Below, one piece after another: positions 2,621-34,583 of a stretch of DNA of 38,253 nt (the stretch's first letter is position 1; each line of letters opens with the position of its first letter). The stretch comes from a virus (taxonomy: Duplodnaviria > Heunggongvirae > Uroviricota > Caudoviricetes). A program made the translations under genes and the position numbers. Location: IMG/VR virus record IMGVR_UViG_2778261538_000002; one strand, given 5' to 3'. Below the pieces are notes generated by a model that saw only the letters and a list, made by a program, of their open reading frames with translations, was not told the origin of the DNA and did not search any database.

Positions 2621-2855
2621 AACTGAAGTTGCCCTGAAAATGAAATTTTTTTGCACAACCGCAGAACTTTTCCGCAGGGCATCAGTCTTAATTAGTGCCA
2701 CTGCTTTTCTTTGATGTCCCCATTTTGTGGAGCCCATCAACCCCGCCATTTCGGTTCAAGGTTGATGGGTTTTTTGTTGCCTTAAATTTATGCCGTTTAA
2801 AATCATGATGTTAGAAGCACTGTTTTTTAACGATGGCGACAAAATGGCGGCAGCG
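2621..2855. other. host-prophage junction; attachment site expected here
   Basis: interval between the ybjL stop and the first phage gene (ogr); exact core repeat cannot be defined because the other att lies outside the window. Confidence 0.4.
2733..2776 (+). terminator. rho-independent terminator downstream of ybjL
   Basis: perfect 10-bp inverted repeat cccatcaacc/ggttgatggg (2733-2742 and 2760-2769) followed by TTTTTT; loop is long (17 nt). Confidence 0.5.
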
Positions 2856-3074
2856 TCAAAGAGAGAGCGCCACCTGTCCTGATTTCATTGGATGCGGCTG
2901 AACCGGATTTGACTCTTTTGGCGTTGCAATCGAACGAACAAAAGTTTCATGGGTAACAAAAGTATGGCTGCAGTTAATGTTCTGGCACTGGTTGTAACGC
3001 TCTTTGGTCAATGAAGATACCTGAAAACTGCTGCGAGTATGGGCGGCACTTCCACACAGTGGGCAAATCATCAT
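2856..3074 (-). CDS. ogr: late gene transcriptional activator (Ogr/Delta zinc-finger family)
   Basis: about 72 aa from the tandem Met; CPLCG...CQNINC four-Cys zinc finger and KERY motif as in P2 Ogr; sits next to gene D as in P2. Confidence 0.8.
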   Translation of the reverse strand: MMICPLCGSAAHTRSSFQVSSLTKERYNQCQNINCSHTFVTHETFVRSIATPKESNPVQPHPMKSGQVALSL

Positions 3075-3164
3075 TTTTCGAGTTCTCCCCATTTTTGCTA
3101 AATTCACAATAATGATACCGCATTATTCCATTTTGCAAACTTAAAAGTTCTCCATTGCGAAGAA

Positions 3165-17978: not shown

Positions 17979-18182
17979 TCAGTCCCATAACTGGACGGTC
18001 TGCACGGTGGTGGTGGTCGGAATGTCCGGCAGCTCCACCTGCAGCCCGTGAGGTAAAAAGGGGCCGTATTCGGCAAGCCCCGGATTTGCCTTCAGTACCT
18101 GTTCCGTGACACCCTGCGTGCGCCCGTAATGACGCCAGCAAAGCGCGTCCACCGTGTCATACTGATGCGCACACACTTTCAT
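17979..18182 (-). CDS. X: tail protein X
   Basis: 67-aa ORF; P2 gpX-like. Confidence 0.8.
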   Translation of the reverse strand: MKVCAHQYDTVDALCWRHYGRTQGVTEQVLKANPGLAEYGPFLPHGLQVELPDIPTTTTVQTVQLWD

Positions 18183-18646
18183 CAGATAAGCTCCACTGTG
18201 CAGTGCGGCGCGTCCTGTACCCGGCTGATGGCCCAGCGGGCGTCACGCCACAAATCACCGCTGGCTTCCGCCAGTTCCTCGCCCCGCTTCACACCAGACG
18301 CCGTGGCGTCATAGTCCTGGTAACGTTCGTTGAGCATGGCGCGTGCCCAGCAGTAAACCGCGTTGAAATAGTGCTGAATGCGCTCACTTTTGCCGTCCAG
18401 TTGTTCCGCCGGAACCTCTGCCAGCGAGGAATACCCCAGCATCTGCTGGCGTCTGCGAAACTCATACAGTTCTGCGTTGACCTCCGAAATTGCCGACAGC
18501 GCAACCTGCTTTAAACGCGGCTGCGTCACCGTGCCGTCAGTGCGCATGACACTGCGAAACTCCGACAGGTCCACATCAGGCCAGAACGGCGTATTCCTGA
18601 TGATTTCCGCCTGTTCCGGTGCCTGTTCTGGCGCAACAAACTTCAT
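18182..18646 (-). CDS. L: head completion protein L
   Basis: ORF 18182-18709 trimmed to Met22, which has an AGGAG RBS about 9 nt upstream; C-terminus (ELWRDxRWAISRVQ) is gpL-like. Confidence 0.8.
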   Translation of the reverse strand: MKFVAPEQAPEQAEIIRNTPFWPDVDLSEFRSVMRTDGTVTQPRLKQVALSAISEVNAELYEFRRRQQMLGYSSLAEVPAEQLDGKSERIQHYFNAVYCWARAMLNERYQDYDATASGVKRGEELAEASGDLWRDARWAISRVQDAPHCTVELI

Positions 18647-18741
18647 GCTGCTTTCTCCTGAAATAGAGGGCGGTGGACGGGGTTTTGATGTGGCAGTGCC
18701 TTTCGCCACCCCGTGCCGCCCGTGCGCGGGGGCACGTTCTG

Positions 18742-19392
18742 TCAGCGGCTGTCATTGCGCAGTCTGCGCTCCAGCTGCTGTTTGTCTTTTTTCACGCCAC
18801 AGCGGGGATCGAGCTGTAACGCATGGTTGAGATGATTAAGGGCGGAAGCCGGGTTGCTTTCACTCAGGACAGCGCCAATCGCTTTATGCAGACGCGCCCG
18901 TGACTGGTCCGGCATATCCAGACCGTCTGTCAGCTCCAGCGTCTGCAGCAACAGATCGGCATCAAAGCCGGTGGCGGCAAGCATTGCGCTCTGCGCCGCG
19001 TCTGCCATTTCCTCTGCCAGCACGGTCTGCACATTGCGATTACCCAGCGGCATCACCCAGCCATGACGCAGGGCATGACGCCCGATCTCCAGCGCCCCGG
19101 CATAATCTCCGGCATCAATGCGCCACAGCATCACGTACATCAGCACGTCATCCTGTTGAGCGCCTCCGGCAGCCAGGACACCCTCTGCCCAGGCGACGTA
19201 TTTCGGCAGCAGCTCCACCTTGATTTCCGCTTTTTTGACCGTGGACTGAACGCCCTTGAGACGGCGGCGGTCTTCCGCCAGTTGCAGCAGCATCAGGTCA
19301 TAGCCCGACGCGTGGCGAACACTGCCGCCCTCGCGGGCGGCCTGTTCAGCCTGAACGCGCAGGCGATGCTGCCGTGCGGGACTCAGGCTCAT
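18742..19392 (-). CDS. M: terminase small (endonuclease) subunit
   Basis: 216-aa ORF; P2 gpM-like. Confidence 0.85.
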   Translation of the reverse strand: MSLSPARQHRLRVQAEQAAREGGSVRHASGYDLMLLQLAEDRRRLKGVQSTVKKAEIKVELLPKYVAWAEGVLAAGGAQQDDVLMYVMLWRIDAGDYAGALEIGRHALRHGWVMPLGNRNVQTVLAEEMADAAQSAMLAATGFDADLLLQTLELTDGLDMPDQSRARLHKAIGAVLSESNPASALNHLNHALQLDPRCGVKKDKQQLERRLRNDSR

Positions 19393-19395
19393 GGA

Positions 19396-20454
19396 TTACG
19401 CTCCGGTTTCTGCTGCGGCGGCGCTGAAGTCGCCAATCTGGATGTTTTCCACCAGTGCGGCGCAGCGGTAGTCCTCAACCACATAGGCTTCGTTAACGGA
19501 TTCAAAGTTTTCAATCCGGTCACGTTTCGGGTTGTCGATAACTGAACGGCGGCGAGTGTCTTCCTGCCAGTAGATGGACAGGTTATCCAGACGGGTGATC
19601 AGCAGCGCATTCGGCGGGAAGAACGGCGCACGCACGGCCTGCAGGCCACCCATGCGTTTCTGGCTGATGATCATATCTGCAGCCAGTTTTTCACTGTTCT
19701 CCTGCTCTTTGTTGACCAGCGGGAAATACTTGTCAGACAACAGTTCACGACCGCAAATCACCACCAGATCGTCATCGTCCTGGTAAACCACGTCGATAAG
19801 CTCATTGACGGCATCCATCACCACGGCGTCCAGGTTGGCATATTCGCCACCTTTGCCGACTTTCACTGCGCCCGGTGTGGTTTCACCGCCCGTGGTGGTG
19901 CTGCCCATGACGTGATCCGGTGCATCCTCACGGATTTTCTGCAGCCAGCCTTTATTCACATCCTGCAGCAGCGGGTTTTCGCTACGGTTGGAGGTTTTCG
20001 CACGCTTCACGCCGTTAAAGCCGATCATGATGCGGTCCAGTGCCTGACGTTTCACGATGGCGTCACGGATGCGCACCTGGAAATCCTGAAACTTCGCCCA
20101 CAGATCCAGCTTCGCGTAGGTCAGCACCGTGTCAAAGTTGGTCTGCTCGCATTTATATTCCACATCGACCATCAGCGTCGGATCGACAGGCTCACGCTCT
20201 TTCGCGGTGGTATCAGTGGTTCCGGCAATGGTGCTGCCAACACCCAATCCAAGCAGCTGACCGGACTGCTCAGTCACTGGCGTGACGTTAATCAGCGTCA
20301 GGAAAGCGGCGGACTGCTGGATCTGGTCTTCCAGCGTCTGCTGTACAGACGGCTCCACGGTGAACTTGCTGGACAGTTCTTCAACTGCCACACCGTTCAG
20401 ACGCGCCAGCTGCTGCAGGTAAGCGTTAAAAGCAAAGCGGGTATTCTTCTTCAT
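19396..20454 (-). CDS. N: major capsid protein
   Basis: 352-aa ORF; P2 gpN-like. Confidence 0.9.
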   Translation of the reverse strand: MKKNTRFAFNAYLQQLARLNGVAVEELSSKFTVEPSVQQTLEDQIQQSAAFLTLINVTPVTEQSGQLLGLGVGSTIAGTTDTTAKEREPVDPTLMVDVEYKCEQTNFDTVLTYAKLDLWAKFQDFQVRIRDAIVKRQALDRIMIGFNGVKRAKTSNRSENPLLQDVNKGWLQKIREDAPDHVMGSTTTGGETTPGAVKVGKGGEYANLDAVVMDAVNELIDVVYQDDDDLVVICGRELLSDKYFPLVNKEQENSEKLAADMIISQKRMGGLQAVRAPFFPPNALLITRLDNLSIYWQEDTRRRSVIDNPKRDRIENFESVNEAYVVEDYRCAALVENIQIGDFSAAAAETGA

Positions 20455-20470: not shown

Positions 20471-21304
20471 TCAGCAATTGGTCAGAGTGTCAGTGGGGGC
20501 GTTACCGCCTGTTGCACGCTGGCGGTAGTCCTGGCGGCTGTCTTCATGGCTCAGCTTGTCCACCAGTTCGTTAAAGGCGGTCAGCTGTGCCTGCAGGGAT
20601 GTCTCCAGCTCAGACAGGCGTTCTTCCTGTTCAGACAGGGATTTTTCGGTGCGCGCACTCAGGTTTTGCTGCTCAGTGGCGACCAGCTCCACGGCCTTAT
20701 GCACATCAGAGAACCGGGCATCGTCGGACTGCTCTTTTTTGGTGAACAGCGCCGTGACACGGGCAAACAGGGACGGCTTGTCCTCCTGGATTTCTTCCAG
20801 TTCGATCACCGTTTCCTCTGCGGCGGTAAAAAGATTGGCGGGATTCTGCTTGCGGTTTGCCAGCGGGTTATGGGCTGCACTCGCGCTGAATGTCAGCATT
20901 TCCGTACCCAGACTGGCTGGATCATCAGTGGCGGCCAGGCCAACCAGGTAGGCTTTGCCCGTATCAGCGAACTTCGGGCTGACTTCCATAGAGGTGAATA
21001 ATTTCTGGCCTTTTTTCACCAGTTCCACCAGGGACTCCGTTGGCTCAACGTCGGCATACAGCGCCATCTTGCCTGCCAGCGGACCTTCCGTGATTTCTTC
21101 AGCAAACAGCGCCGTCACCTTGCCGTAGCGGTTAAAGGTGCTGTCCGGCAGATAAGACTTGATGTGCTCAAGGTTAATCAGCGCGGTGTACACCGCCGGG
21201 TTGTAGCTGGCTGCCATCTGTTCCAGCCATTCACGCTGGATTTCGCGTCCGTCGGTGGTGGCACCTTCCACCCCGATGCGAAAACGCTTTGCTTTCACTG
21301 TCAT
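20471..21304 (-). CDS. O: capsid scaffolding protein
   Basis: ORF 20471-21424 trimmed to Met41 (MTVKAKRFRIGVEG), matching the gpO N-terminus. Confidence 0.85.
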   Translation of the reverse strand: MTVKAKRFRIGVEGATTDGREIQREWLEQMAASYNPAVYTALINLEHIKSYLPDSTFNRYGKVTALFAEEITEGPLAGKMALYADVEPTESLVELVKKGQKLFTSMEVSPKFADTGKAYLVGLAATDDPASLGTEMLTFSASAAHNPLANRKQNPANLFTAAEETVIELEEIQEDKPSLFARVTALFTKKEQSDDARFSDVHKAVELVATEQQNLSARTEKSLSEQEERLSELETSLQAQLTAFNELVDKLSHEDSRQDYRQRATGGNAPTDTLTNC

Positions 21305-21445
21305 GAGCCGTGCTCCGTTAGAAAAACTTACTGGAGCCTTATGGTTGCGGTGATGGGGGCAGTGAAACAATGCGCGGTATTTGTACCGACAACCACACAA
21401 ACCGCAGGCGGGGAAAGCCTTCATTCAAGGCTGTAGGTTTGTGCC
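21305..21445. promoter_or_regulatory. divergent late promoter region between O and P
   Basis: 141-bp interval between divergently transcribed capsid (O) and terminase (P) operons, as in P2. Confidence 0.45.
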
Positions 21446-23212
21446 ATGAACACCACACTGACACCCGCAGATCTCGATCCCCGTCGGCAGGCCATGCTGC
21501 TGTACTTTCAGGGATACCGCGTAGCCCGCATTGCTGAAATGCTGGGCGAAAAAGTTGCAACCGTTCACAGCTGGAAGAAACGCGACAAGTGGGGTGACTA
21601 TGGGCCGCTGGATCAGATGCAGCTCACCACCGCCGCACGTTACTGCCAGCTCATTATGAAGGAGCACAAAGAAGGGAAAGATTTCAAAGAAATTGACCTG
21701 CTGGCGCGGCAGTCGGAGCGCCACGCGCGGATCGGCAAGTTTAACAATGGCGGCAACGAAGCCGACTTAAACCCTAACGTCGCCAACCGCAACAAAGGCC
21801 CGCGTCGTCAGCCGGAAAAGAACGTTTTCACCGATGAACAGATTGAAAAGCTGGAAGAAATCTTCCATTCCTCCATGTTCAACTACCAGCGCCACTGGTG
21901 GGAAGCCGGAAAAACCAACCGCATCCGCAACCTGTTGAAGTCACGCCAGATCGGCGCGACCTTCTATTTTGCCCGTGAAGCCCTGATTGACGCTCTGCTG
22001 ACTGGACGTAACCAGATTTTCCTTTCCGCAAGCAAGGCACAGGCCCACGTCTTTAAGCAGTACATCATCGACTTCGCCAAAGAAGTGGAGGTGGAGCTGA
22101 AAGGTGATCCGATGGTGCTTCCCAACGGGGCCACGCTTTACTTCCTCGGCACCAATGCCCGCACGGCCCAGAGTTATCACGGCAACCTGTATCTGGATGA
22201 ATATTTCTGGATACCGAAATTCCAGGAGCTGCGCAAAGTGGCTTCCGGTATGGCTATTCACAAGAAATGGCGACAGACCTATTTTTCCACGCCATCCAGT
22301 CTGACACACAGTGCTTATCCGTTCTGGTCCGGTGCGCTGTTCAACCGTGGGCGCAACAAAGCCGATAAGGTGGACATCGACCTGTCCCACAGCAATCTGG
22401 CCCCCGGCCTGCTGTGCGCAGACGGGCAATACCGCCAGATAGTCACCGTGGAAGATGCGGTGCGCGGCGGCTGTAACCTGTTCGACCTTGACCAGTTGCG
22501 CATGGAGTACAGCCCGGACGAATACCAGAACCTGCTGATGTGCGAGTTCGTGGACGATCTCGCGTCCGTGTTCCCGCTCAGCGAGCTGCAGGCGTGCATG
22601 GTGGACAGCTGGGAAGTCTGGACCGACTTTCATGCACTGGCCCTGCGCCCGTTTGGCTGGCGCGAAGTATGGATCGGCTATGACCCGGCAAAAGGCACGC
22701 AGAACGGCGACAGCGCCGGATGCGTGGTGGTGGCACCGCCAGCCGTACCGGGCGGCAAATTCCGCATTCTTGAGCGGCACCAGTGGCGCGGGATGGACTT
22801 CCGCGCCCAGGCTGACGCCATCAAAAAACTGACACAGCAGTACAACGTGACCTATATCGGCATTGACTCGACCGGCGTCGGTCACGGGGTTTATGAGAAC
22901 GTGAAAGCGTTCTTTCCTGCCGTCCGGGAGTTTGTCTACAACCCCAATGTTAAAAACGCCCTGGTACTCAAGGCCTACGACATTATCAGCCACCGCCGTC
23001 TGGAGTTTGACGCCGGACACACCGACATTGCGCAGTCATTTATGGCAATCCGTCGTGCCACCACCGCCAGTGGCAACCGCCCGACCTATGAAGCCAGCCG
23101 CAGCGAAGAAGCCAGTCACGCCGATCTGGCCTGGGCAACGATGCACGCACTGTTTAATGAACCGCTGCAGGGCGAGTCCGCCAATACCAGCAATATTGTG
23201 GAGATTTTTTGA
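21446..23212 (+). CDS. P: terminase large (ATPase) subunit
   Basis: 588-aa ORF; P2 gpP-like. Confidence 0.9.
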   Translation: MNTTLTPADLDPRRQAMLLYFQGYRVARIAEMLGEKVATVHSWKKRDKWGDYGPLDQMQLTTAARYCQLIMKEHKEGKDFKEIDLLARQSERHARIGKFNNGGNEADLNPNVANRNKGPRRQPEKNVFTDEQIEKLEEIFHSSMFNYQRHWWEAGKTNRIRNLLKSRQIGATFYFAREALIDALLTGRNQIFLSASKAQAHVFKQYIIDFAKEVEVELKGDPMVLPNGATLYFLGTNARTAQSYHGNLYLDEYFWIPKFQELRKVASGMAIHKKWRQTYFSTPSSLTHSAYPFWSGALFNRGRNKADKVDIDLSHSNLAPGLLCADGQYRQIVTVEDAVRGGCNLFDLDQLRMEYSPDEYQNLLMCEFVDDLASVFPLSELQACMVDSWEVWTDFHALALRPFGWREVWIGYDPAKGTQNGDSAGCVVVAPPAVPGGKFRILERHQWRGMDFRAQADAIKKLTQQYNVTYIGIDSTGVGHGVYENVKAFFPAVREFVYNPNVKNALVLKAYDIISHRRLEFDAGHTDIAQSFMAIRRATTASGNRPTYEASRSEEASHADLAWATMHALFNEPLQGESANTSNIVEIF

Positions 23213-24237
23213 TGGGAAAGAGTAAGAAAAACCGCGCTGCGGCGACGAACCAGATCCAGCATAAAAACCAAACTTCAGCCGAAGCATTCAGCTTCGGTGA
23301 TCCCGTTCCTGTTCTGGACCGCCGCGAATTACTGGACTATGTGGAATGCGTACAGATGGACCGCTGGTATGAGCCACCAGTGAGTTTCGACGGGCTGGCG
23401 CGAACCTTTCGCGCCGCCGTGCACCACAGCTCACCGATTGCCGTAAAGTGCAACATTCTGACCAGCACCTACATCCCTCATCCGCTGCTCAGCCAGCAGG
23501 CTTTTTCACGTTTTGTGCAGGACTATCTGGTATTTGGTAACGCCTACCTGGAGAAACGCACGAACCGCTTCGGTGAAGTGATCGCCCTTGAACCTGCCCT
23601 GGCGAAATACACCCGACGCGGGTTAGACCTAGATACCTACTGGTTTGTGCAATACGGTATGACAACCCAGCCGTATCAGTTCACGAAAGGCAGCATTTTT
23701 CATCTGATGGAACCGGACATCAACCAAGAGATCTACGGCCTGCCCGGTTATCTTTCTGCCATTCCGTCAGCCTTGCTCAACGAGTCCGCCACGCTGTTCC
23801 GCCGCAAGTATTACATTAACGGCAGTCATGCTGGCTTCATCATGTACATGACCGACGCCGCGCAGAACCAGGAAGATGTGAACAACCTCCGTAATGCGAT
23901 GAAAAGCGCCAAAGGTCCGGGCAACTTCCGCAACCTGTTTATGTACTCGCCGAACGGCAAAAAGGACGGACTTCAGATTATCCCGTTGTCAGAAGTCGCG
24001 GCGAAGGATGAATTTCTGAATATCAAGAACGTGAGCCGTGATGACATGATGGCTGCGCACCGCGTGCCGCCTCAGATGATGGGGATTATGCCGAATAATG
24101 TCGGGGGATTTGGGGATGTGGAGAAGGCCGCAAATGTATTTGTGCGTAATGAGTTAATTCCGCTTCAAAGAATTATACAAGGATTTAACGGATTTATTGG
24201 TGACGACATCATAAACTTCGAAAAATATAAATTATAG
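23209..24237 (+). CDS. Q: portal protein
   Basis: 342-aa ORF, ATGA-coupled to P; P2 gpQ-like. Confidence 0.9.
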   Translation: MMGKSKKNRAAATNQIQHKNQTSAEAFSFGDPVPVLDRRELLDYVECVQMDRWYEPPVSFDGLARTFRAAVHHSSPIAVKCNILTSTYIPHPLLSQQAFSRFVQDYLVFGNAYLEKRTNRFGEVIALEPALAKYTRRGLDLDTYWFVQYGMTTQPYQFTKGSIFHLMEPDINQEIYGLPGYLSAIPSALLNESATLFRRKYYINGSHAGFIMYMTDAAQNQEDVNNLRNAMKSAKGPGNFRNLFMYSPNGKKDGLQIIPLSEVAAKDEFLNIKNVSRDDMMAAHRVPPQMMGIMPNNVGGFGDVEKAANVFVRNELIPLQRIIQGFNGFIGDDIINFEKYKL

Positions 24238-24266
24238 AAAATAGGCCTGTAATCAGGCCTAGTATA

Positions 24267-25346
24267 CTAACATTGTTTACATAAATCAGAAAAACTACCA
24301 CCGAAATAATACAGTGCAGATTTATCATTTAGTTCTTTAAAAACTTCACACGCACGCTGGTGTATCTCAATAGCACTAGATTTATTTCGTCCAATAATAA
24401 CAGTCTCTTTTTCAGTACTATCGCCATCCAGAAAAGTCTTCAAAAGAAAATTAATAATAAAGTCTTCCTTTGGGAAAGAATAACCTATAAAGATCAACAG
24501 ATCTGCTTGTCTCAACTGGGTAGAGGATTTCACAAAAGCTGTCTTAAAGTATTTATCCCCATAGTCTTGTTCATTTGAAGGCAAGATAATATTTGGAACA
24601 ACTTTTGCGTTCAATAATGAATCATAATCTATTTTAAAACCATCCCTTGCAGCAACAACCTCAAATCCTCCATTAAGCTTATACAAACCTATACCTTTAG
24701 GCTGAGGACACACTAATATATTATTATGATGCACAGGAAAACCCCGATTAACTGAACGTTCAGGGAATGCATGATGTAGCACTTTATCAATAACTATATC
24801 GTAGTTTGTTGTGACTACATCCAGTGCTGAAGCTTCCTGTAAACTCTTAAAGAAAGAAATAATATTCCTTTTATTCTGCCCAAATTTTGCAGTTTGACTT
24901 AGCTTTAAATCATTTGCCGGTATTTTTTTTGCAAACTTATTTTTTACATATAGTTTTACTTGTGCCTCAAACAACTCAAGCGTATGCCTATCAAGATACG
25001 ACGGCAATAAACTTGGATATCGCTTATAAACATCCAATGCATATTTAAAACTCTTGAAAACATTAGCTTTGTCATCTAAACCTGCATTAGCATCCGCCCA
25101 TTTAAATTTAAGACTGTCGAACAAAGAAAAAAAACCATACTCATCAATATTTTCTAATGCTTCGTCTTCAGAGATGGAAAAGACTTCATTACTCAATGGG
25201 TATTTGTCATCCCAGGCTTTAGAAAATCCTGCTCCGAGAAAAACACATACTCTTCGCTCTCTTATTTTTGATTTCAATGTGGCGAAGGATGTAATTTCTA
25301 AATTATTAGGTGTCAAAATATCACCATCATAAGCAAAGCTAGTCAT
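24267..25346 (-). CDS. SIR2-like domain protein (candidate NADase effector)
   Basis: 359 aa; RVCVFLGAGFS Rossmann motif near the N-terminus, TTNYD motif, His cluster (VLHH, PVHH) and IFIGYSFP motif, which I recognise as the SIR2_2 (PF13289-type) pattern; AT-rich; starts 14 nt after the ATPase stop. Confidence 0.7.
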   Translation of the reverse strand: MTSFAYDGDILTPNNLEITSFATLKSKIRERRVCVFLGAGFSKAWDDKYPLSNEVFSISEDEALENIDEYGFFSLFDSLKFKWADANAGLDDKANVFKSFKYALDVYKRYPSLLPSYLDRHTLELFEAQVKLYVKNKFAKKIPANDLKLSQTAKFGQNKRNIISFFKSLQEASALDVVTTNYDIVIDKVLHHAFPERSVNRGFPVHHNNILVCPQPKGIGLYKLNGGFEVVAARDGFKIDYDSLLNAKVVPNIILPSNEQDYGDKYFKTAFVKSSTQLRQADLLIFIGYSFPKEDFIINFLLKTFLDGDSTEKETVIIGRNKSSAIEIHQRACEVFKELNDKSALYYFGGSFSDLCKQC

Positions 25347-25359
25347 GTTTTTCTCACGC

Positions 25360-26589
25360 TTAGTTTTTTATATCAAGAAAAGCTGGAACTAATCCAAATT
25401 CGCCACGTAAATATTTGGCAGACACTTTAGCATCTTTCCTTACAGAAAATACCGTAGCATTAGTTATTATCGACGCTTTAGATGAATCCTTGACTATAAT
25501 ATTAAGCTCATCTCTTCTAAACACATCATCTAATAAAGGAATATTATGTGTAGACATAATAAACTGCACACCATTTTTACGGCAGGTTTTATCAAATATT
25601 TTTTTGATTAGTGCACTTGCCAAAGAATAGTGAATAGATGAATCTATTTCATCCACATAAAGTGTAAAATCATATTCACTAGCCCAAATCAATATTGCTA
25701 AAAATGTTAAAACATTTAGTGTGCCTTGGGAAAAAAATTCATCCCTACGGTCAGGGCCTATTCTAGTAAAATCACCATCATCATTTTTTATGAGATAAAC
25801 AAATTTATACTCATTATCTTCGCCAAATCTTACAAATTCAACTTTATCTATATGCAGCGGCGACTGAATAACCATTTCATTATAGGTATTTAAAATTCTT
25901 TGACCACTCTCATTTAATTTTTCATTTCCTTCCTCACCTGATAACTGGCGCTTAAGTTGTCCTTCAACAAATTTAAGACTTGGATTTTTGAATTTTTCAG
26001 AGTAATAAGGCAATTGTTTTAATGCCCAGCGTTGGGTTTCAACAAGAGCATCAATTTCTAAAGATTTTGCAAAAGTTACAACAGCTCCACTTTCTCTTAA
26101 GACAGGATTAATCAACGACTCGTATTTTTTTAAGTCGGGCTTTTTGAAAACCAACCCATTTTCATTGCGAATAAAAATACATTGTTCCCTTGCACTTTTT
26201 CTTATCGGTCTAATGTATAAATACTCATCTACAATAACTTCATTTAAAACTGACACACCATAACGGACGAAGTTTTTTTGCTCTTCATCAATCAGTATCG
26301 CTTCATAGGAAGTAGGTTTGTTACGACATTCCTTATTTAGAAGGAAAGGCATATGCAATTTGTGTAATGTGTCACTATGAATTGAATTTGCAAATTCAGT
26401 AATAGCATTTATTAATTGTGTTTTACCAACACCATTTCCGCCTATTAATGCGGCAAATCTGTTTACTCTTAAACCATTCGCTAATGTCACGATATGTTCA
26501 GGATGCTCATCCCCAATTGAGGAAGCAAAACTAAGAACCTGTCTTTCGCGAAAGCTCTTGTAATTTTCTAAACTGAATGCAACTAGCAT
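25360..26589 (-). CDS. ABC/AAA_15-21-type ATPase (candidate defense sensor)
   Basis: 409 aa; Walker A GGNGVGKT, Walker B LYVDEID, H-loop-like FIMSTHN; GAGGA RBS; AT-rich; no TOPRIM or coiled-coil evident. Confidence 0.75.
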   Translation of the reverse strand: MLVAFSLENYKSFRERQVLSFASSIGDEHPEHIVTLANGLRVNRFAALIGGNGVGKTQLINAITEFANSIHSDTLHKLHMPFLLNKECRNKPTSYEAILIDEEQKNFVRYGVSVLNEVIVDEYLYIRPIRKSAREQCIFIRNENGLVFKKPDLKKYESLINPVLRESGAVVTFAKSLEIDALVETQRWALKQLPYYSEKFKNPSLKFVEGQLKRQLSGEEGNEKLNESGQRILNTYNEMVIQSPLHIDKVEFVRFGEDNEYKFVYLIKNDDGDFTRIGPDRRDEFFSQGTLNVLTFLAILIWASEYDFTLYVDEIDSSIHYSLASALIKKIFDKTCRKNGVQFIMSTHNIPLLDDVFRRDELNIIVKDSSKASIITNATVFSVRKDAKVSAKYLRGEFGLVPAFLDIKN

Positions 26590-26704
26590 CTGAAGTCCTC
26601 ATTTTTGCGTAAAAAACGCATTTTTGACTATTTCGGTAATGTAATCCAGTGCTAACGCAAAAGCAACTTAACATTTTATGTTATATTATTAATTATGTAT
26701 CCGC

Positions 26705-26735
26705 GCGCGCTCGTATCCCCGCCACGCCTGCCCGC
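26705..26735. other. putative cos site (cohesive end)
   Basis: - strand reads GGCGTGGCGGGGATACGAG; the first 13 nt match the P2/186 cohesive-end sequence as I recall it (GGCG[A/T]GGCGGGGAAAGCA). Confidence 0.5.
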
Positions 26736-27037
26736 TTTATGCAGTGGTTTTCATGCACCTGCATGACATGAGTAAAAGCCCGCCAGTTCTAGCAGGTCTC
26801 TGCAAAAACGATCCTCAATCGATCATGCGATTTCATGCAGCATAGTCATGCACAGCCGAGGGAAGCGTAAATCCGTATCTGAATGACCGCTGAAAAGCGA
26901 ATCATACGGGTTTACAAAGATGAAAGTCCGCTGTGAACGAGAAACGGACTATGATACTAACAAGAGAGCATCACTGTTAATATTTGAACAATTAATGCTC
27001 AGCTATTTATCTATTTTACAATCAGAAAGGACTTGTA

Positions 27038-27424
27038 ATGGTTACGGTTGATGAATTAAAGATGAAATATCCGGACGCGAATGCCTGGCAAGTGGGCGAC
27101 AGCCCTGAACTGGCTAACGAGCTTGCAGCACTTATCAAAAAAGGGATTAAAACGGCCTCCTGCGGCTCTTATGCCTCTTACCAGAAGGAAGAGTTTGCCC
27201 CAAGGATTGGGAGCTATAACATCATCCTTAACGGCCAGGATGTACCGGTATGCGTGACCCGGCTAGTGTCGATGCGACTGGTGCGTTTTTGTGATGTTAC
27301 TGCCGAGTTCGCTCGCAAGGAAGGTGAAGGCGATTTGAGTCTTGAATATTGGCAGAGAGAGCATCAACGATTTTTTACATGTGAAGGTTACTTTTCTGAC
27401 GATATGGAGCTGATTATGGAATAG
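27038..27424 (+). CDS. ASCH-domain protein
   Basis: 128 aa; ASCH/PUA-like pattern (LIKKGIKTASCG ... FARKEGEGDLSLEYWQREHQRFF); AAAGGA RBS. Confidence 0.7.
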   Translation: MVTVDELKMKYPDANAWQVGDSPELANELAALIKKGIKTASCGSYASYQKEEFAPRIGSYNIILNGQDVPVCVTRLVSMRLVRFCDVTAEFARKEGEGDLSLEYWQREHQRFFTCEGYFSDDMELIME

Positions 27425-27638
27425 TTTGAAGTTGTTGATGTTTTGTAATCCAACAACGTTTATGCATGTCAGATTAGAATAACTGAGTACCGTTTTATCA
27501 CGTGAAATTTGTATTAATGCCCGCCTCTGGCACAAAGCGAACGAGCACTTATCAAAATGCCCACCCACCTTACGCCTCGTTTCACTCGTTGCCCAAACTA
27601 GCCCCCATCAGAATGAATCCTCCTGGGGGCAACGTTTC

Positions 27639-27872
27639 TTAATGCAGCCAGCTGTCGTCTTCCCACACCTTCTGCATAATTTTCATCACTTGTTTTCTTT
27701 CTTCATCCAGTTGCAGTCCGGTCAGTTCCACACCGTTAGAGCTACCTTTACGGATACGAATTACCGTTTTGGGATACAGGGGGCGCAGATTGCGGTAAAG
27801 CTCGGATTCAAGGGCGTCCAGGGTAGACTGGCTAATCTTCTGCTCTTTATCGATCATTATTTCAATGCGCAT
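27639..27872 (-). CDS. DinI-family protein (C-terminal part of a 186 Tum-like SOS module)
   Basis: 77 aa from Met25 of ORF 27639-27944 (MRIEIMIDKEQ ... WEDDSWLH), clearly DinI-like. Confidence 0.75.
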   Translation of the reverse strand: MRIEIMIDKEQKISQSTLDALESELYRNLRPLYPKTVIRIRKGSSNGVELTGLQLDEERKQVMKIMQKVWEDDSWLH

Positions 27873-27882
27873 AAAAGTCACC

Positions 27883-28071
27883 TCAACTGATGACATCCAT
27901 TGAGCGGTTGTATTCGTGGGTTCTGATTTTTGCCATGAGTTCATCTGTCAGTTCAGAAACCCACTGCAGGGCCAGCCCCTTCTCTTCATCACTACACTCA
28001 CTAGCCGCTACAAGCTTAAGAAAAAAATCAATGCGCTGGAGCTTCAAAGACTCCAAAAAATAGTCCTGCAT
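27883..28071 (-). CDS. small protein upstream of the DinI-like gene (possible Tum N-terminal/antirepressor part)
   Basis: 62 aa from Met35 of ORF 27883-28173; AGGAGG RBS; overlaps the DinI-like ORF out of frame. Confidence 0.55.
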   Translation of the reverse strand: MQDYFLESLKLQRIDFFLKLVAASECSDEEKGLALQWVSELTDELMAKIRTHEYNRSMDVIS

Positions 28072-28224: not shown

Positions 28225-30639
28225 TTAATACAGGTTCCGCCATTTATCATCCTCCTGCAGACGCTGGTTCCGATAGAAGATACGCAGGCCTGCTTCTGAC
28301 GGAATACTGCCGCCGCGAAGGAGTAAATCGACCTCTTTCTCGCTGCCATCAAATCCTCTGGACTTCAGCTCATAGACGAGCTGCAGTCGTTGATGGTCTG
28401 TAATTCGCTGTTTGTAGTCTTTACGCCGTATCGGTTTAACCAGGCGTAACCTTGCAGCCAGTTCCCGGCGCTCTTTTTTGCTCATACTGTGCAGGTAATC
28501 GTGCAACTCCTTGTCATCCATGCGGGTAATGTCCGTTCTGGTGTCCCCATCAGCTGATTTATCTTTCTCCTGTTGGTTCAAATTTTCAGCAAGGGGACAG
28601 TTATTGCCACGAGTCCAAGGGGCGCAAGCGCCCTGGTCGGCTGCCGCCTCCTGAACGTCAACGGCCTTACGAACCATTTTCCACTTCACGGCATGAGTGC
28701 AGATCTTGCCCTCTGCAATGGGTGACCAGATGCCATAAATACGAATGCCGTGATCGCCATAGGCGGTCGGCTCTTCGTTAATTTCATAAGCGGTTCTGAT
28801 GAGGTGATATTTGCGGGGAACCAGTACGCCGCCCTGCTTCATGATGTAGGTGGCAAAACAACCAGCATCAGCAGCAGCCAGGATGGCATCAAGGCGCGGG
28901 TTATCCAGTACCGGCGCACCTGCTTTTTTGTCGCCCTGTTGCCTTGCCGCCTGACCAGCCAGCAATCGCAGTTCACGGTAAGCCTGACGCCCCGGAATGC
29001 CAAAGAAGCGGAATTGCTGAACACGATGCAGAGACGCCCAGGCATTAACGTATTCAGCGTTATCACGCAGGGATTTACCCGTTTCCTTACTGATCTCGCC
29101 AGCCAGACCACGCCCGTCAATGTTCTTACTGATGTATTTCGCGATGTAGCTTGTTGGCGTACCTTTGCGCGGGTTTATCAGCTCAGACTTAAAGCGTGGT
29201 CCCGTGTTATTACCCAGCTCCTCGCGGTCTTCACGAATGGCAAACTTACGCAACAAAGCAGTAATGGCGCGGCGATCTTTTTTGCGCATAAAACACAACA
29301 GGTGCCAGTGAACTGTACCGTCATGATGCGGCTCAGCCACCCGCACGCCATACCAGCGCAATCCGGCTTTGTGCATCGCCTTACGAAATGCAGCAAACAT
29401 GCCGACCAGATAATCACTGCTTTGTCTTACCGTCGCATTTGTCCAGGTCGGGTTGGGCCTGCCGTTATTTAGCGTGGAATGGAAACGTGACGGACAGGTG
29501 ATGGTGTAGAAAACGGCGCAGTCACCGCGCATTTCCGCGATAAGCTCCAGACCTTTAACACAGGCCATCATCTCATTGCGGCGATGCGCAGGGTTGCTGC
29601 TGCTGGCGTTTACCACATCCTCCATGTCCAGCGTGTCGCCGTCTTCGTTCACCAGTTCATGAGAACGGAAAAACTCCAGCGACTTACGGCGCTGCTCACG
29701 TTTATGCATCACGGCTTCATAGCTGACATAGGGAGATGCTTTTTTGCTGACCAGGCAAACAGCACGCAACTGCTCTTCCCGCCATTCGCAACGCATCTTC
29801 CATAATTTCCGGTACCACCAGTCGGCGCACAACATACGCGCCAGCGAACCCGGAATGAGTTCATAGGGCACGGGTTTACGGCGGTTTCTTTTCCGGCGGA
29901 GTTGCTCAAACGCAGGCGGTATGACATCCAGTCGCAGGGTTTCTGCTGCCACCTTTTCCCATGTCTTGCGGATTTCTTCTGGCTTAACATCATCGGTGGC
30001 GTACAAATCACCACAAGCGGCATCAAGACACATGCTCATATGCGCAGCGACAAGAGTAGACAGGCGTTTCACCTGATCCTGACTCATTTCAGGCAAGTTC
30101 AGCAGGCCGTCCAGCCCTTCATGGCTTGCCATAAAGCGAAAAGAAGTGGATAGCTGACTCTCGCGTACATGCTCCAGTCGTTCCAGACATGGCTTAATCG
30201 TCTCACGCAAATAGCGGGAATAAGCCTTTGGCCTGCCCAGGCTGCTGAAGTATTCAATACGTTGCATCAGCGGCTTGCTGATATGGGAAGGCTGGGCGTT
30301 AACGTCCGCCAGTATGACCATGTCCGGATTAAAACGCTGCTGCTCATGCGCCAGCTTTGCCCGGCTAATGAGCTTATCCTGCTCCATTTCGCGTTGGACA
30401 GGATCACGGGATTCATTAAAGAAATAACGCTCCCAGACCTGATCACTCAGTGCCTCGAGGCGCAGTTGTTCCTGCTCGTTATCGGCAGCGTACAGAGTGA
30501 TCAGGTTTGAAAGCGCAGAAACCGGCGCAACTTCCGCCGGGTCCAGATAAGGGTTAATAGCCTTTTTCGGGCTGTTCCATGAGAATGCTGCGGCGGCCTC
30601 GTTAAAGCCGCTGCAGTTGTTCATATCAGCATGGCTCAT
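28225..30639 (-). CDS. A: replication initiation protein A (rolling-circle nickase)
   Basis: about 804 aa from the ATG at 30639 (ORF track begins at an upstream TTG); HUH-type [10 protein letters not shown] motif and tyrosine pair YIAKYISK; ATGA-coupled to dam. Confidence 0.88.
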
Positions 30640-31493
30640 GCACGCACTCCGTACACGACGGAACAATCCACGCCACGCGAAGGATCAAATCCTACCCAGC
30701 AGCGCGGCCCGGAAACAGCGATGATTTCTGTTGCAGATTTACTCTCACCAGCTGCCACGCCGATGCTGCGTTTTGCCTTGATGTAGTGGTGAGTAAAATT
30801 GCGATACAGCGAACGGATCAGGGATGTGTCACTGTTAGAAACAATGACCGGATGTCCTTCTGATGACCGATGTTCAAGAACGGATGCCAAGTGATACTGG
30901 TCATCTTCAGTGAAGCCGTCAGTGTGATAGCCGGAAAACGTACCGTCATAAGGCGGATCGCAATACACCACATCCCCCGCCTTCAACATCGCCAGCGTTT
31001 CATCAAAGCTTGCGCAGATAAACGTTGCCCGCTGGGCTTTCTCTGCAAATGCGCGAATTTCTTTTTCAGGGAAATACGGATTTTTATAATTACCGTACGG
31101 AATGTTGAAATGCCCGCTCTTGTTATAGCGACATAACCCACGGTAACCATGACGATTGAGATACAGGAAATATACCGCTTTCATGAAATCAGTAATTTCA
31201 GTGGAGTAATTAAACTCCTGCCTTATGTTGTAATAAGCCACCTCCCTGTTTGCTTCCTCAAATAAAGCTCTGGCACGAGATATAAACGCCTCGCAATCAG
31301 CAGCAACCTTTTTATAGAGGTTGATTAAATCAGGATTAATATCCGCAACAAGATAGCTGGGGTAATCCGTCTCCATCATCACAGCACAGGAACCCGCGAA
31401 AGGTTCAACCAGTCGCGGGCCTGCAGGAAGATGTTTTTTCAGTTCGGACATAATGGCGGTTTTATTTCCCGCCCATTTCAGGATGGTGCTCAT
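30636..31493 (-). CDS. dam: DNA adenine methyltransferase (Dam-like)
   Basis: ORF 30636-31553 trimmed to Met21 ([11 protein letters not shown]); motif [10 protein letters not shown] and motif IV DPPY. Confidence 0.85.
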
Positions 31494-31717
31494 ACAACAC
31501 CTCCGTTGTAATGTTTGCCTTTCAGCTCTGCGATTTCCTGACAGGTAATGCAAAGCTGCACTCCAGGAATGGCGCGGCGTCGTGCTGGCGGAATTGGCGC
31601 TTCACATTCAATACAAAGCACACGAGACACGCCCGGTGTTTTGGCACGGGCAGCACGGATATAGCGCTGGCGTTCTTCTTCAACGCGCTGCTGTACGAGA
31701 TCCATTGCATCAGCCAT
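31490..31717 (-). CDS. DksA/TraR-family C4 zinc-finger protein
   Basis: 75 aa; CIECEAPIP...CITCQE zinc finger; position equivalent to P2 orf82. Confidence 0.75.
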   Translation of the reverse strand: MADAMDLVQQRVEEERQRYIRAARAKTPGVSRVLCIECEAPIPPARRRAIPGVQLCITCQEIAELKGKHYNGGVV

Positions 31718-32780: not shown

Positions 32781-33290
32781 TCACAGCAAACCGAATGAAG
32801 CACCGAGGCCAGTCACGGTATCAACCGCACTCGCCATCGCAGGGTTAGCCTGTAAACGGGCCTGCAATGAAACAGCAGCCAGCGCCATCAGTCGTGTTAC
32901 AGAGTTAATGCTGCTGATGGCATCACGACGACCTGCACTGGTTTTTACATCGCCAGATACCGCACCTGCAGCAACACGCCCGATCTCTGCGGTTGCACTC
33001 ATGACGTAATGTGGCAGTTTCTCTTTTGCCACCTCATTAATCGGCACACATGGCAGACAATGAATCTGAGCCAAAAAACCATCTACCAGCGTCGAATCTT
33101 CAGTCAGATCGGTAAGCAACCAGATTTCTGGTGCGGTTAATAAATGAGGTTGAGCTGGGTTCAGCTTGTTCCGCAGGATCTGCACATTCATGCCTGCACG
33201 TTCTGCCAGTTGCACCAGGTTGTGGCGCAGTGCGAATGCACGACAGGCTTCATCAAAATGTGGATGTTTGGAAACTTGGTAATCAAACAT
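32781..33290 (-). CDS. cII: CII-like lysogeny establishment protein
   Basis: 169 aa from Met19 ([20 protein letters not shown]...), nearly identical to coliphage 186 CII as I recall it. Confidence 0.85.
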
Positions 33291-33322
33291 AGTCGCCCCT
33301 CTTGATGTACCCCAAAATGGAA

Positions 33323-33544
33323 CTAGTTGAATACAACATTGCAATCAGTAAGTGCATCAACGGTAAGAGCAGCAAGGTTGATCATTACCTTTTCCCTTTT
33401 CTTGTCTTTCCGAAGGCGATGGCGAGGGATGCGACCATCTGCCAGCATATCGTTGATTGTGTCGATTGAAAGGCCAGTAAGTTCGCTATAACGCTCGATT
33501 GTGACGTGTGGCGTATTCAGAGTTATTGAAATGTTAGGTGTCAT
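33323..33544 (-). CDS. apl: Apl/Cox-like excisionase-repressor
   Basis: 73-aa HTH protein, first gene of the lytic operon, divergent from the repressor gene. Confidence 0.75.
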
Positions 33545-33632: not shown

Positions 33633-34583
33633 ATGTCAACTCAAAAATTCACATTTCGCCATATCAAAGAGGATGCGAAAGCCATTGTTATGCAGAATCG
33701 TGGGGGACAGAAAGTCATTGAGCGAATACTCAAAGCTTATGGCTTCAAGTCACGCCAAGCGTTCTGTAACCATCTTGGTATTTCACAAAGTACGATGGCC
33801 AATAGATATGCTCGCGATACATTTCCTGCTGATTGGGTTGTTATATGCTCAATGGAAACAGGAGCATCTTTGGAATGGCTGGCGTTTGGTTCTGATGCGG
33901 CAGAAGAAATACTCTCAACTGCTCCAAATGGATACAACGAAGACGACCAGCGAGATGACGTTGAAAGTGACAATCATATACCTTCCTTTAATTTTCATAA
34001 TGATCATCAAGTCGATTTCAATCAGGGAGGAAAAGCGGCAATAGAACGGATAGTTAAGGCTTATGGCTTTAAAACTCGTCAAGCACTGGCAGATCATCTT
34101 GGTATATCAAAAAGTACATTAGCTACACGCTATATGCGTGACTCATTCCCTGCTGATTGGATAATACAGTGTGCCCTTGAAACTGGATTCTCATTGAAAT
34201 GGCTTGTTGATGGGCAAGGACTTAATAAAAGTTCACAAAATGAAAACATTGTGTGCATAAACAAGTACGTGCTTGCCGATGGTGCACTCGAAATGAAGGG
34301 TAACTACATTTTTGATAAGTCCTTTGTACCTAAGTCGATTAAAGATCCAATGTTAATATTTGATGGCAGCAGGATATACTTAGCTGAGGGGAACTTTGAC
34401 GAAATTAGCGATGGATTGTGGTTTGTTGAAATTGAAGGAAAAATCAGTGTTCGCGAGGTAATAAGAATACCGGTAGGTAAAGTAAGAGTAACGAGCTCAA
34501 ACTCAAATATTACTTTTGACTGTGCAATTAATGAACTCAAACCGGTTGCAAAATGCCAGTTCAACCTAATGACTATAATATAA
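33633..34583 (+). CDS. cI: CI-type immunity repressor with duplicated N-terminal HTH domain
   Basis: 316 aa; two tandem copies of a 186-CI-like HTH module (ERILKAYGFKSRQAF...HLGISQSTMANRY..FPADW and ERIVKAYGFKTRQAL...HLGISKSTLATRY..FPADW) plus a CI-like C-terminal domain. Confidence 0.8.
   Translation: MSTQKFTFRHIKEDAKAIVMQNRGGQKVIERILKAYGFKSRQAFCNHLGISQSTMANRYARDTFPADWVVICSMETGASLEWLAFGSDAAEEILSTAPNGYNEDDQRDDVESDNHIPSFNFHNDHQVDFNQGGKAAIERIVKAYGFKTRQALADHLGISKSTLATRYMRDSFPADWIIQCALETGFSLKWLVDGQGLNKSSQNENIVCINKYVLADGALEMKGNYIFDKSFVPKSIKDPMLIFDGSRIYLAEGNFDEISDGLWFVEIEGKISVREVIRIPVGKVRVTSSNSNITFDCAINELKPVAKCQFNLMTII

Follow-up and report, generated by a model that had tools for sequence, protein, structure and literature searches.

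The window, the whole 38,253-nt stretch of DNA that was analysed (IMG/VR record IMGVR_UViG_2778261538_000002), includes E. coli host DNA with the genes ybjL-ybjM-grxA-rybB and carries a P2/186-type prophage (Table 1). The RybB gene adjoins the prophage end, beside an ogr/Delta-like gene, and integration of the prophage seems to have taken place at rybB or beside it. Around the putative packaging site, the order is gpA (−), DinI (−), ASCH (+), cos, ATPase-SIR2 (−), Q (+) and P (+), which is the P2 map reversed, with the presumed cos lying where P2, 186 and PSP3 have theirs. The strand that begins GGCG reads towards Q, the same polarity as in these three phages. The prophage that carries this site encodes a P2-type terminase (gpM and gpP) and portal; the gpM, gpP, gpQ, capsid and scaffold genes are all intact, with full-length family matches. 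The control region is 186/Fels-2-like rather than P2-like, with a Dam-type methyltransferase and 186-type CII and CI.

Table 1 Features of the prophage and of its predicted packaging region (positions are those of the window).
Feature	Position	Strand	Basis
RybB sRNA (noted with 1-2620 and 2856-3107)	2700-2778	+	Rfam RF00110, 105 bits
gpL, head completion	18182-18709	−	
Small terminase gpM	18742-19392	−	PF05944 (3e-40)
Capsid gpN	19396-20454	−	
Scaffold gpO	20471-21424	−	
Large terminase gpP	21446-23212	+	PF03237, PF17289, PF06056
Portal gpQ	23209-24237	+	PF04860
Hairpin GGCCTG-taat-CAGGCC, between convergent Q and SIR2	24245-24260		tQ/tW terminator position
Cargo gene 2, SIR2-like (SIR2_2)	24267-25346	−	PF13289 (1.3e-8), SIR2 models
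Cargo gene 1, AAA_15/AAA_21 ATPase, AbiLi-like	25360-26589	−	PF13304 (9e-14), PF13175 (8e-10), PADLOC AbiLi (2e-51)
AT-rich leader with presumed cargo-operon promoter, wholly on the left-end side of the cut	26590-26702	−	Sequence reading
Core left-flank end, CGCGCGC (+20 to +26)	26703-26709	−	Similarity of relatives ends and cargo DNA starts
cosN, predicted 19-nt 5'-protruding cohesive end GGCGTGGCGGGGATACGAG	26710-26728	−	Sequence; 186/PSP3 and SEN8 match
Core right-flank half (−1 to −29), TGCATGAAAACCACTGCATAAAGCGGGCA, begins with the proximal TGCAT	26729-26757	−	Core alignment
Palindrome TCATGCA-CC-TGCATGA, proximal TGCAT and its inverted partner at −36	26751-26766		7-nt arms, 100% complementary
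Terminator-like hairpin with T-run, in the spacer between the repeat clusters	26779-26796	−	Sequence scan
Distal array, three direct repeats oriented as the proximal TGCAT	26823-26852	−	Sequence
ASCH-domain gene, cargo on the gpA side, transcribed away from cos	27038-27424	+	PF04266 (1.5e-19)
DinI	27639-27944	−	
Replication protein gpA	28225-30666	−	
Dam-type N6-adenine methyltransferase; 186-type CII; CI	30636-31553; 32781-33344; 33633-34583	−; −; +	

We compared the predicted cohesive end with the annotated ends of known P2-family phages. The + strand at 26710-26728 is CTCGTATCCCCGCCACGCC; the − strand, read as its reverse complement from 26728 to 26710, is therefore GGCGTGGCGGGGATACGAG, exactly as an earlier note on this DNA had reported. 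That note had also likened the first 13 nt to the P2/186 cohesive end, and the likeness holds: over these 13 nt the window agrees with the annotated 186/PSP3 end (GGCGTGGCGGGGAAAGCAT) at 13/13 positions and with the annotated P2 end (GGCGAGGCGGGGAAAGCAC) at 12/13. When all 19 nt are counted, the agreement with the 186/PSP3 end is 15/19, with the 186 overhang unlike the window at positions 14, 16, 17 and 19. Nicks are predicted between 26729 and 26728 on the − strand and between 26709 and 26710 on the + strand.

The complete 19-mer is identical to the one annotated as a putative cos site in Salmonella phage SEN8, whose record begins exactly at this sequence; the SEN8 genome announcement gives the cos site, found during annotation, as ggcgtggcggggatacgag (PMC5427200). 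The Cartapus record begins 32 bp upstream, and bases 1-59 are labelled there as a putative cos, homologous to the P2 site. Furthermore, the 19-mer together with CGCGCGC is identical between the window and Fels-2, SEN8, Cartapus and the Yersinia phage vB_YpM_MLG42. We recovered 120 IMG/VR loci with the cos junction pattern, and among 90 extracted P2-family cos records (IMG/VR loci, the window and three reference junctions) the 19-mer of the window was the commonest variant (30/90). For this cos variant, the literature yielded no experimental mapping of ends; the SEN8 site is annotation-based and the Cartapus site putative. We found no second cos beside Q, where P2 has its own; the gap between Q and SIR2 is only 29 bp, and the window holds no second match.

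We then rebuilt the cos junctions of P2, 186, PSP3 and P4 by linking the right end of each genome, as annotated, to its left end, and set the window against them. The alignment with P2 and 186 that the earlier note had proposed as a check extends well past the 13-mer, taking in the whole 55-bp core (−29 to +26), and the pattern TGCAT...GCGGGC, overhang, YGCGCGC is present. Identity to the window over the core was 42/55 for P2, 43/55 for P4, 44/55 for 186, 45/55 for PSP3 and 53/55 for SEN8, and the final 13 bases ahead of the cut (CATAAAGCGGGCA) are identical to those of PSP3. Among the relatives, information content is 1.6-2.0 bits at +21 to +26 and 0.1-0.6 bits from +27. A BLAST search against phage records returned a block of about 150 bp (26703-26853) with 85-91% identity in 85-91 records of Salmonella, Klebsiella, Yersinia and Escherichia phages.

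Repeats of a short motif lie on the map-right side of the predicted cut. The earlier note had counted at least four copies of (T)CATGCA at 26750-26850. CATGCA occurs here at 26752 (+), 26760 (−), 26834 (+) and 26847 (+), and all four sites extend to TCATGCA (26751-26757, 26760-26766, 26833-26839 and 26846-26852), giving four full copies within 102 bp, three in one orientation and the one at 26760-26766 inverted. There are also two degenerate copies, TCATGCG (26823-26829) and TTATGCA (26737-26743). In coordinates relative to the cut, the distal array consists of TGCATGA at −124 (26852 to 26846), TGCATGA at −111 (26839 to 26833) and cGCATGA at −101 (26829 to 26823), spaced by 13 and 10 bp.

The motif enrichment analysis that had also been proposed showed clustering beyond chance. 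The whole window has 12 copies of TGCATGA/TCATGCA, 4 of them inside these 102 bp, and the expected number of four-site clusters under uniform placement is estimated at about 3.5e-5. Similarly, the five TGCAT/ATGCA sites within 130 bp form the densest cluster in the window (P = 0.011, random placement). CATGCA is depleted about two-fold across the window, with 20 copies compared with the 44.6 that dinucleotide-preserving shuffles predict, so the cluster at cos stands out all the more. These statistics indicate that the repeat observation is real and non-random.

The same results bear on the reading in which the cos resemblance is a chance G+C-rich match and the repeats a chance cluster. The shortness of the 13-mer is the sole point in its favour. 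Exact GGCGWGGCGGGGA occurs at a single site in the 38-kb window, with two further matches that need 2 mismatches each; the flanking 150 bp are 85-91% identical to dozens of P2-family phages at the equivalent map position; and both cluster statistics oppose it. The identity of the BLAST block, the identical 19-mers in relatives and the core alignment together refute a chance match, to which we assign a practically negligible probability.

We investigated the layout of the repeats across 68 non-redundant P2-family cos regions (<90% mutual identity over −140 to +30), aligned without gaps on the cut site; the five-element TGCAT layout described here was derived in the present analysis and not taken from the literature. 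TGCAT was found at −29 in 68/68 regions and its inverted form, ATGCA, at −36 in 45/68. Of the 68, 35 had a direct TGCAT copy at −124, 41 at −111 and 31 at −101, with extra copies one base off register, and 53/68 regions had at least two TGCAT within −130 to −92. The 52-bp spacer, by comparison, held one TGCAT in all 68 sequences, and the background rate in these regions was 0.0022 per position; kinship among the 68 sequences means that these positional counts are not independent events. Information content was near zero upstream of −125 and over most of the spacer, 1.0-1.3 bits at the repeats and 2 bits in the core. The window has all five elements (−29, −36, about −101, −111 and −124), the −101 copy being cGCAT.

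P2, 186, PSP3 and P4 share this plan, with a proximal TGCAT and a triple array near −100 to −125; in P4, which has both repeat clusters, TGCAT-N8-TGCAT-N5-TGCAT is accompanied by the proximal copy. P4 is packaged by the P2 terminase, and the core cos packaging signal is common to P4 and P2 (PMC9122126). The repeats stay in register with the cut site and not with the neighbouring gene: P2 has old at this place, 186 a terminated operon that runs towards cos, and E. coli prophages have ASCH, DUF8087 or other genes. This register, whatever the neighbouring gene, together with the presence of the repeats in P4, argues that the repeats belong to cos as part of its module, as judged from the alignments. 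Their fixed offsets from the cut across the P2 family and P4 also favour the role suggested for them in the earlier note, so that they are probably terminase recognition sites. On the most economical reading, modelled on the R sites in lambda cosB, the repeats would be bound by gpM, their presumed reader. A PDB sequence search with gpM returned no usable relative, and neither a structure nor DNA-binding data for gpM homologues came up.

We also considered a true P2-family cos in which the TGCAT repeats are the binding sites of another factor, for example a host nucleoid protein or a regulator of the phage, or serve the genes beside cos as promoter or operator elements. In P2, the annotated transcript starts of old-tin do follow the distal repeats at a distance of about 25-60 bp, the distal repeats of the window are upstream of the divergent ASCH gene, and the functional cos as commonly quoted is just 55 bp long. 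However, repeat position is fixed relative to the cut site and not to any gene; the repeats are also found in 186 and PSP3, whose adjacent gene is directed at cos, as well as in P4 and beside many unrelated cargo genes; and the proximal TGCAT makes up the first 5 bases of the 55-bp core, invariant in 68/68. We consider this explanation rather unlikely. The narrower proposal that the repeats are operators of neighbouring cargo promoters was rejected, considering the register with the cut whatever the gene and the P4 copies.

In passages of three later papers, the P2/P4 cos is usually quoted as 55 bp, with credit to Ziermann and Calendar 1990 (PMC3931495, PMC5694545, PMC2231350). A 55-bp cos excludes the distal repeats and the inverted −36 copy, which may therefore be dispensable or only stimulatory. 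Our literature search, outside the scope of which the 1990 paper lay, found no description of TGCAT repeats in the P2 cos. Variant repeat layouts were seen in distant relatives (IMG/VR loci L016, L042 and L036): in two of these the proximal pair is direct instead of inverted (TGCATgagTGCAT and TGCATctccTGCAT), and one has four TGCATTA repeats with exact 10-bp spacing.

The spacer between the two repeat clusters contains a hairpin that is weakened in the window, with two stem positions kept only as G-T. A perfect stem of at least 6 bp was found in 20/68 relatives (2/68 in shuffles), followed by a T-run in 15 of the 20; most Fels-2-type relatives have a perfect 9-bp stem and T-run in the cos spacer, and P2 is without the hairpin. 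Its presence in just 20/68 relatives and its absence from P2 led us to reject the hairpin as a universal cos element; a possible role is to stop read-through from the early operon into cos.

The degraded state of this hairpin relative to relatives is what speaks for a non-functional cos, a relic in a defective prophage at which virion DNA is never cut. On the other side, the core has an identical stretch of 26 bp in SEN8, an isolated and sequenced phage (53/55 over the whole core), and the same 26 bp recur in the deposited phages Cartapus and MLG42. Furthermore, all of the packaging and head genes have full-length family matches, and the gene set is complete and 186-like, from ogr beside rybB through to CI. 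These observations make a relic improbable.

Beyond the array, about 100 bp (26853-26952) are 88-94% identical among the E. coli P2-like prophage matches listed, and this block is rare in the IMG/VR relatives (2/120 loci). It contains an inverted repeat (26867-26878/26904-26915), and a promoter-like site on the − strand (26980 to 26951) is directed into it. Rfam searches of the whole window (gathering threshold) and of 26500-27100 (E <= 1) found RybB only and no RNA family at cos. A small RNA across the distal repeats was considered and dropped, the RNA fold of the − strand at 26765-26960 being not distinctive (z = −1.6). A promoter consensus scan gave weak matches only, no more than in shuffles.

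On the Q side of the cut lies a cargo bay bounded by CGCGCGC at 26703 and by the portal terminator near 24245, where the window has a hairpin at the place equivalent to the annotated tQ of P2 and tW of 186. The cargo DNA has 31-35% GC, compared with 52-63% in P and Q, and its two genes run away from cos. We presume a cargo promoter TTGCTT-17-TACATT, with GAGGA ahead of the ATG; this site is missing from the list of the consensus scan. With the presumed promoter inside 26590-26702, the ATPase-SIR2 operon would not be split by the cut. The operon had been placed in the earlier note, on condition that the site is cos, between cos and the portal gene at the extreme left of the packaged genome, and the predicted cut at 26728/26729 agrees with this: the operon would form the first 2.5 kb at the left end of the mature DNA in the P2 map convention. 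The ATPase is AbiLi-like and is paired with a SIR2_2 protein instead of AbiLii. The two genes are a possible defence pair, as yet uncharacterised.

In the window, cos and Q are 2491 bp apart, as opposed to about 190 bp in P2/186. In IMG/VR relatives with P2-type ends this distance is about 207 bp in 19/22; in those with ACGAG/ACGAT-type ends it exceeds 500 bp in 28/33, and relatives with the exact 19-mer of the window have a median of 1782 bp. Cargo between cos and Q is typical for the lineage; it has been described before and is thus not unusual. The present content of the bay is rare. Parts of 24200-27500 are matched in 1265/5426 complete E. coli genomes, and the partial matches listed cover the cos block; ATPase-SIR2 at the cos-Q place was found in 1/5426 (strain E9, NZ_CP104500). 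With ATPase-SIR2 on the Q side, the window prophage has ASCH on the gpA side and strain E9 has DUF8087, while in strain Z1323CEC0015 the Q side is occupied by a TIR-domain gene and the gpA side by ASCH together with a restriction-endonuclease fragment. The two bays that flank cos assort independently among these three E. coli prophages (see also loci L135 and L136). Between gpA and gpQ, beside cos, the genes are variable, compositionally foreign and of defence-type domains, as is cargo of a defence hotspot.

Considering the observed sequence identity, conserved architecture, gene order and intact terminase genes, 26703-26852 is very probably the cos site of an E. coli prophage of the P2/186 family (Fels-2-like) that lies next to rybB and is apparently complete. 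The following mechanism is proposed. Upon induction, terminase (gpM and gpP) would recognise the circular genome at the cos module, most likely via TGCAT on the map-right side, that is, via the palindromic pair at −36/−29 and the phased repeats at −124/−111/−101, an arrangement that would resemble the R sites of lambda cosB. gpP would then nick the two strands 19 bp apart at the bonds given above, leaving linear mature DNA with the 5' overhang GGCGTGGCGGGGATACGAG. Cleavage at these bonds, the binding of TGCAT by gpM and the order in which the ends enter the capsid are inferred. Beyond the overhang just 7 bases are conserved, so any DNA can sit between cos and the portal terminator; in this prophage the bay would hold the ATPase-SIR2 operon, acquired horizontally and equipped with a promoter of its own.

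More tentatively, the packaging signal of the whole P2 family, P4-like satellites included, could be larger than the 55-bp cos, with the triple array about 100-125 bp off and the −36/−29 pair serving as an undescribed, cosB-like landing pad for gpM. Since such a signal would lie wholly to one side of the cut, cos could in addition be the fixed anchor at which the gpA-gpQ hotspot is split into two cargo bays that exchange independently. We regard this combined proposal as possible, with the balance of probability against it.

The kind of cos site, its place and its cargo slot are already known, and the cos variant of the window is already published for SEN8; in these respects the finding is not new. 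Locating the packaging site of this prophage would also locate the ends of its virion DNA. It identifies the ATPase-SIR2 operon as phage cargo in a known cos-proximal defence hotspot, not as a host gene. Furthermore, the family-wide map of TGCAT around cos could guide the design of cos plasmids or phagemids, as well as experiments on DNA recognition by the P2 terminase and P4 satellites.

The closest known systems are the Fels-2-like phages (Felsduovirus and Elveevirus: Fels-2, SEN8, SopEPhi, RE2010, Cartapus and MLG42), in which the module of about 150 bp is 85-91% identical and cos lies between the DinI/gpA side and Q, with cargo between cos and Q as in the window. Only the cargo is unlike: a hypothetical gene and an HNH endonuclease in SEN8, a DUF4145 gene in Cartapus and STM2723.1 in Fels-2. 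P2, 186, PSP3 and P4 share with the window a 19-nt, G+C-rich 5' overhang that starts GGCG(A/T)GGCGGGG; however, in P2, 186 and PSP3, cos and Q are only 187-198 bp apart and enclose no cargo, and P2 carries its cargo (old and tin) on the gpA side only.

Lambda cos consists of cosN and cosB, the latter with the R3, R2 and R1 sites that are bound by the small terminase subunit gpNu1. A nicking site with short repeats on one side, over roughly 100 bp, is common to lambda and the window and provides a working analogy for the TGCAT array, although the two have no sequence similarity and their overhangs differ in length, 12 nt in lambda as opposed to a predicted 19 nt in the window.

A further difference from lambda is that P2 and P4 use monomeric circles as the packaging substrate (PMC2231350). 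As cited in a passage of PMC5694545, Dodd and Egan 1996 and Nakayama 1999 proposed the cosL-Q slot for the uptake of foreign genes by P2-like phages, and Dodd and Egan described the retrons Ec67 and Ec86 as replacing DNA between cos and a terminator in a 186-like prophage. The cos-proximal region between gpA and gpQ is a published defence hotspot of P2 (Rousset et al. 2022, PMC9122126; PMC13586616), and the window resembles it in having variable, often defensive cargo beside cos, the replaced DNA being bounded by cos and the portal terminator. Surveys of the hotspot treat gpA-gpQ as one unit, whereas in the window and its relatives cos divides the hotspot into two bays.
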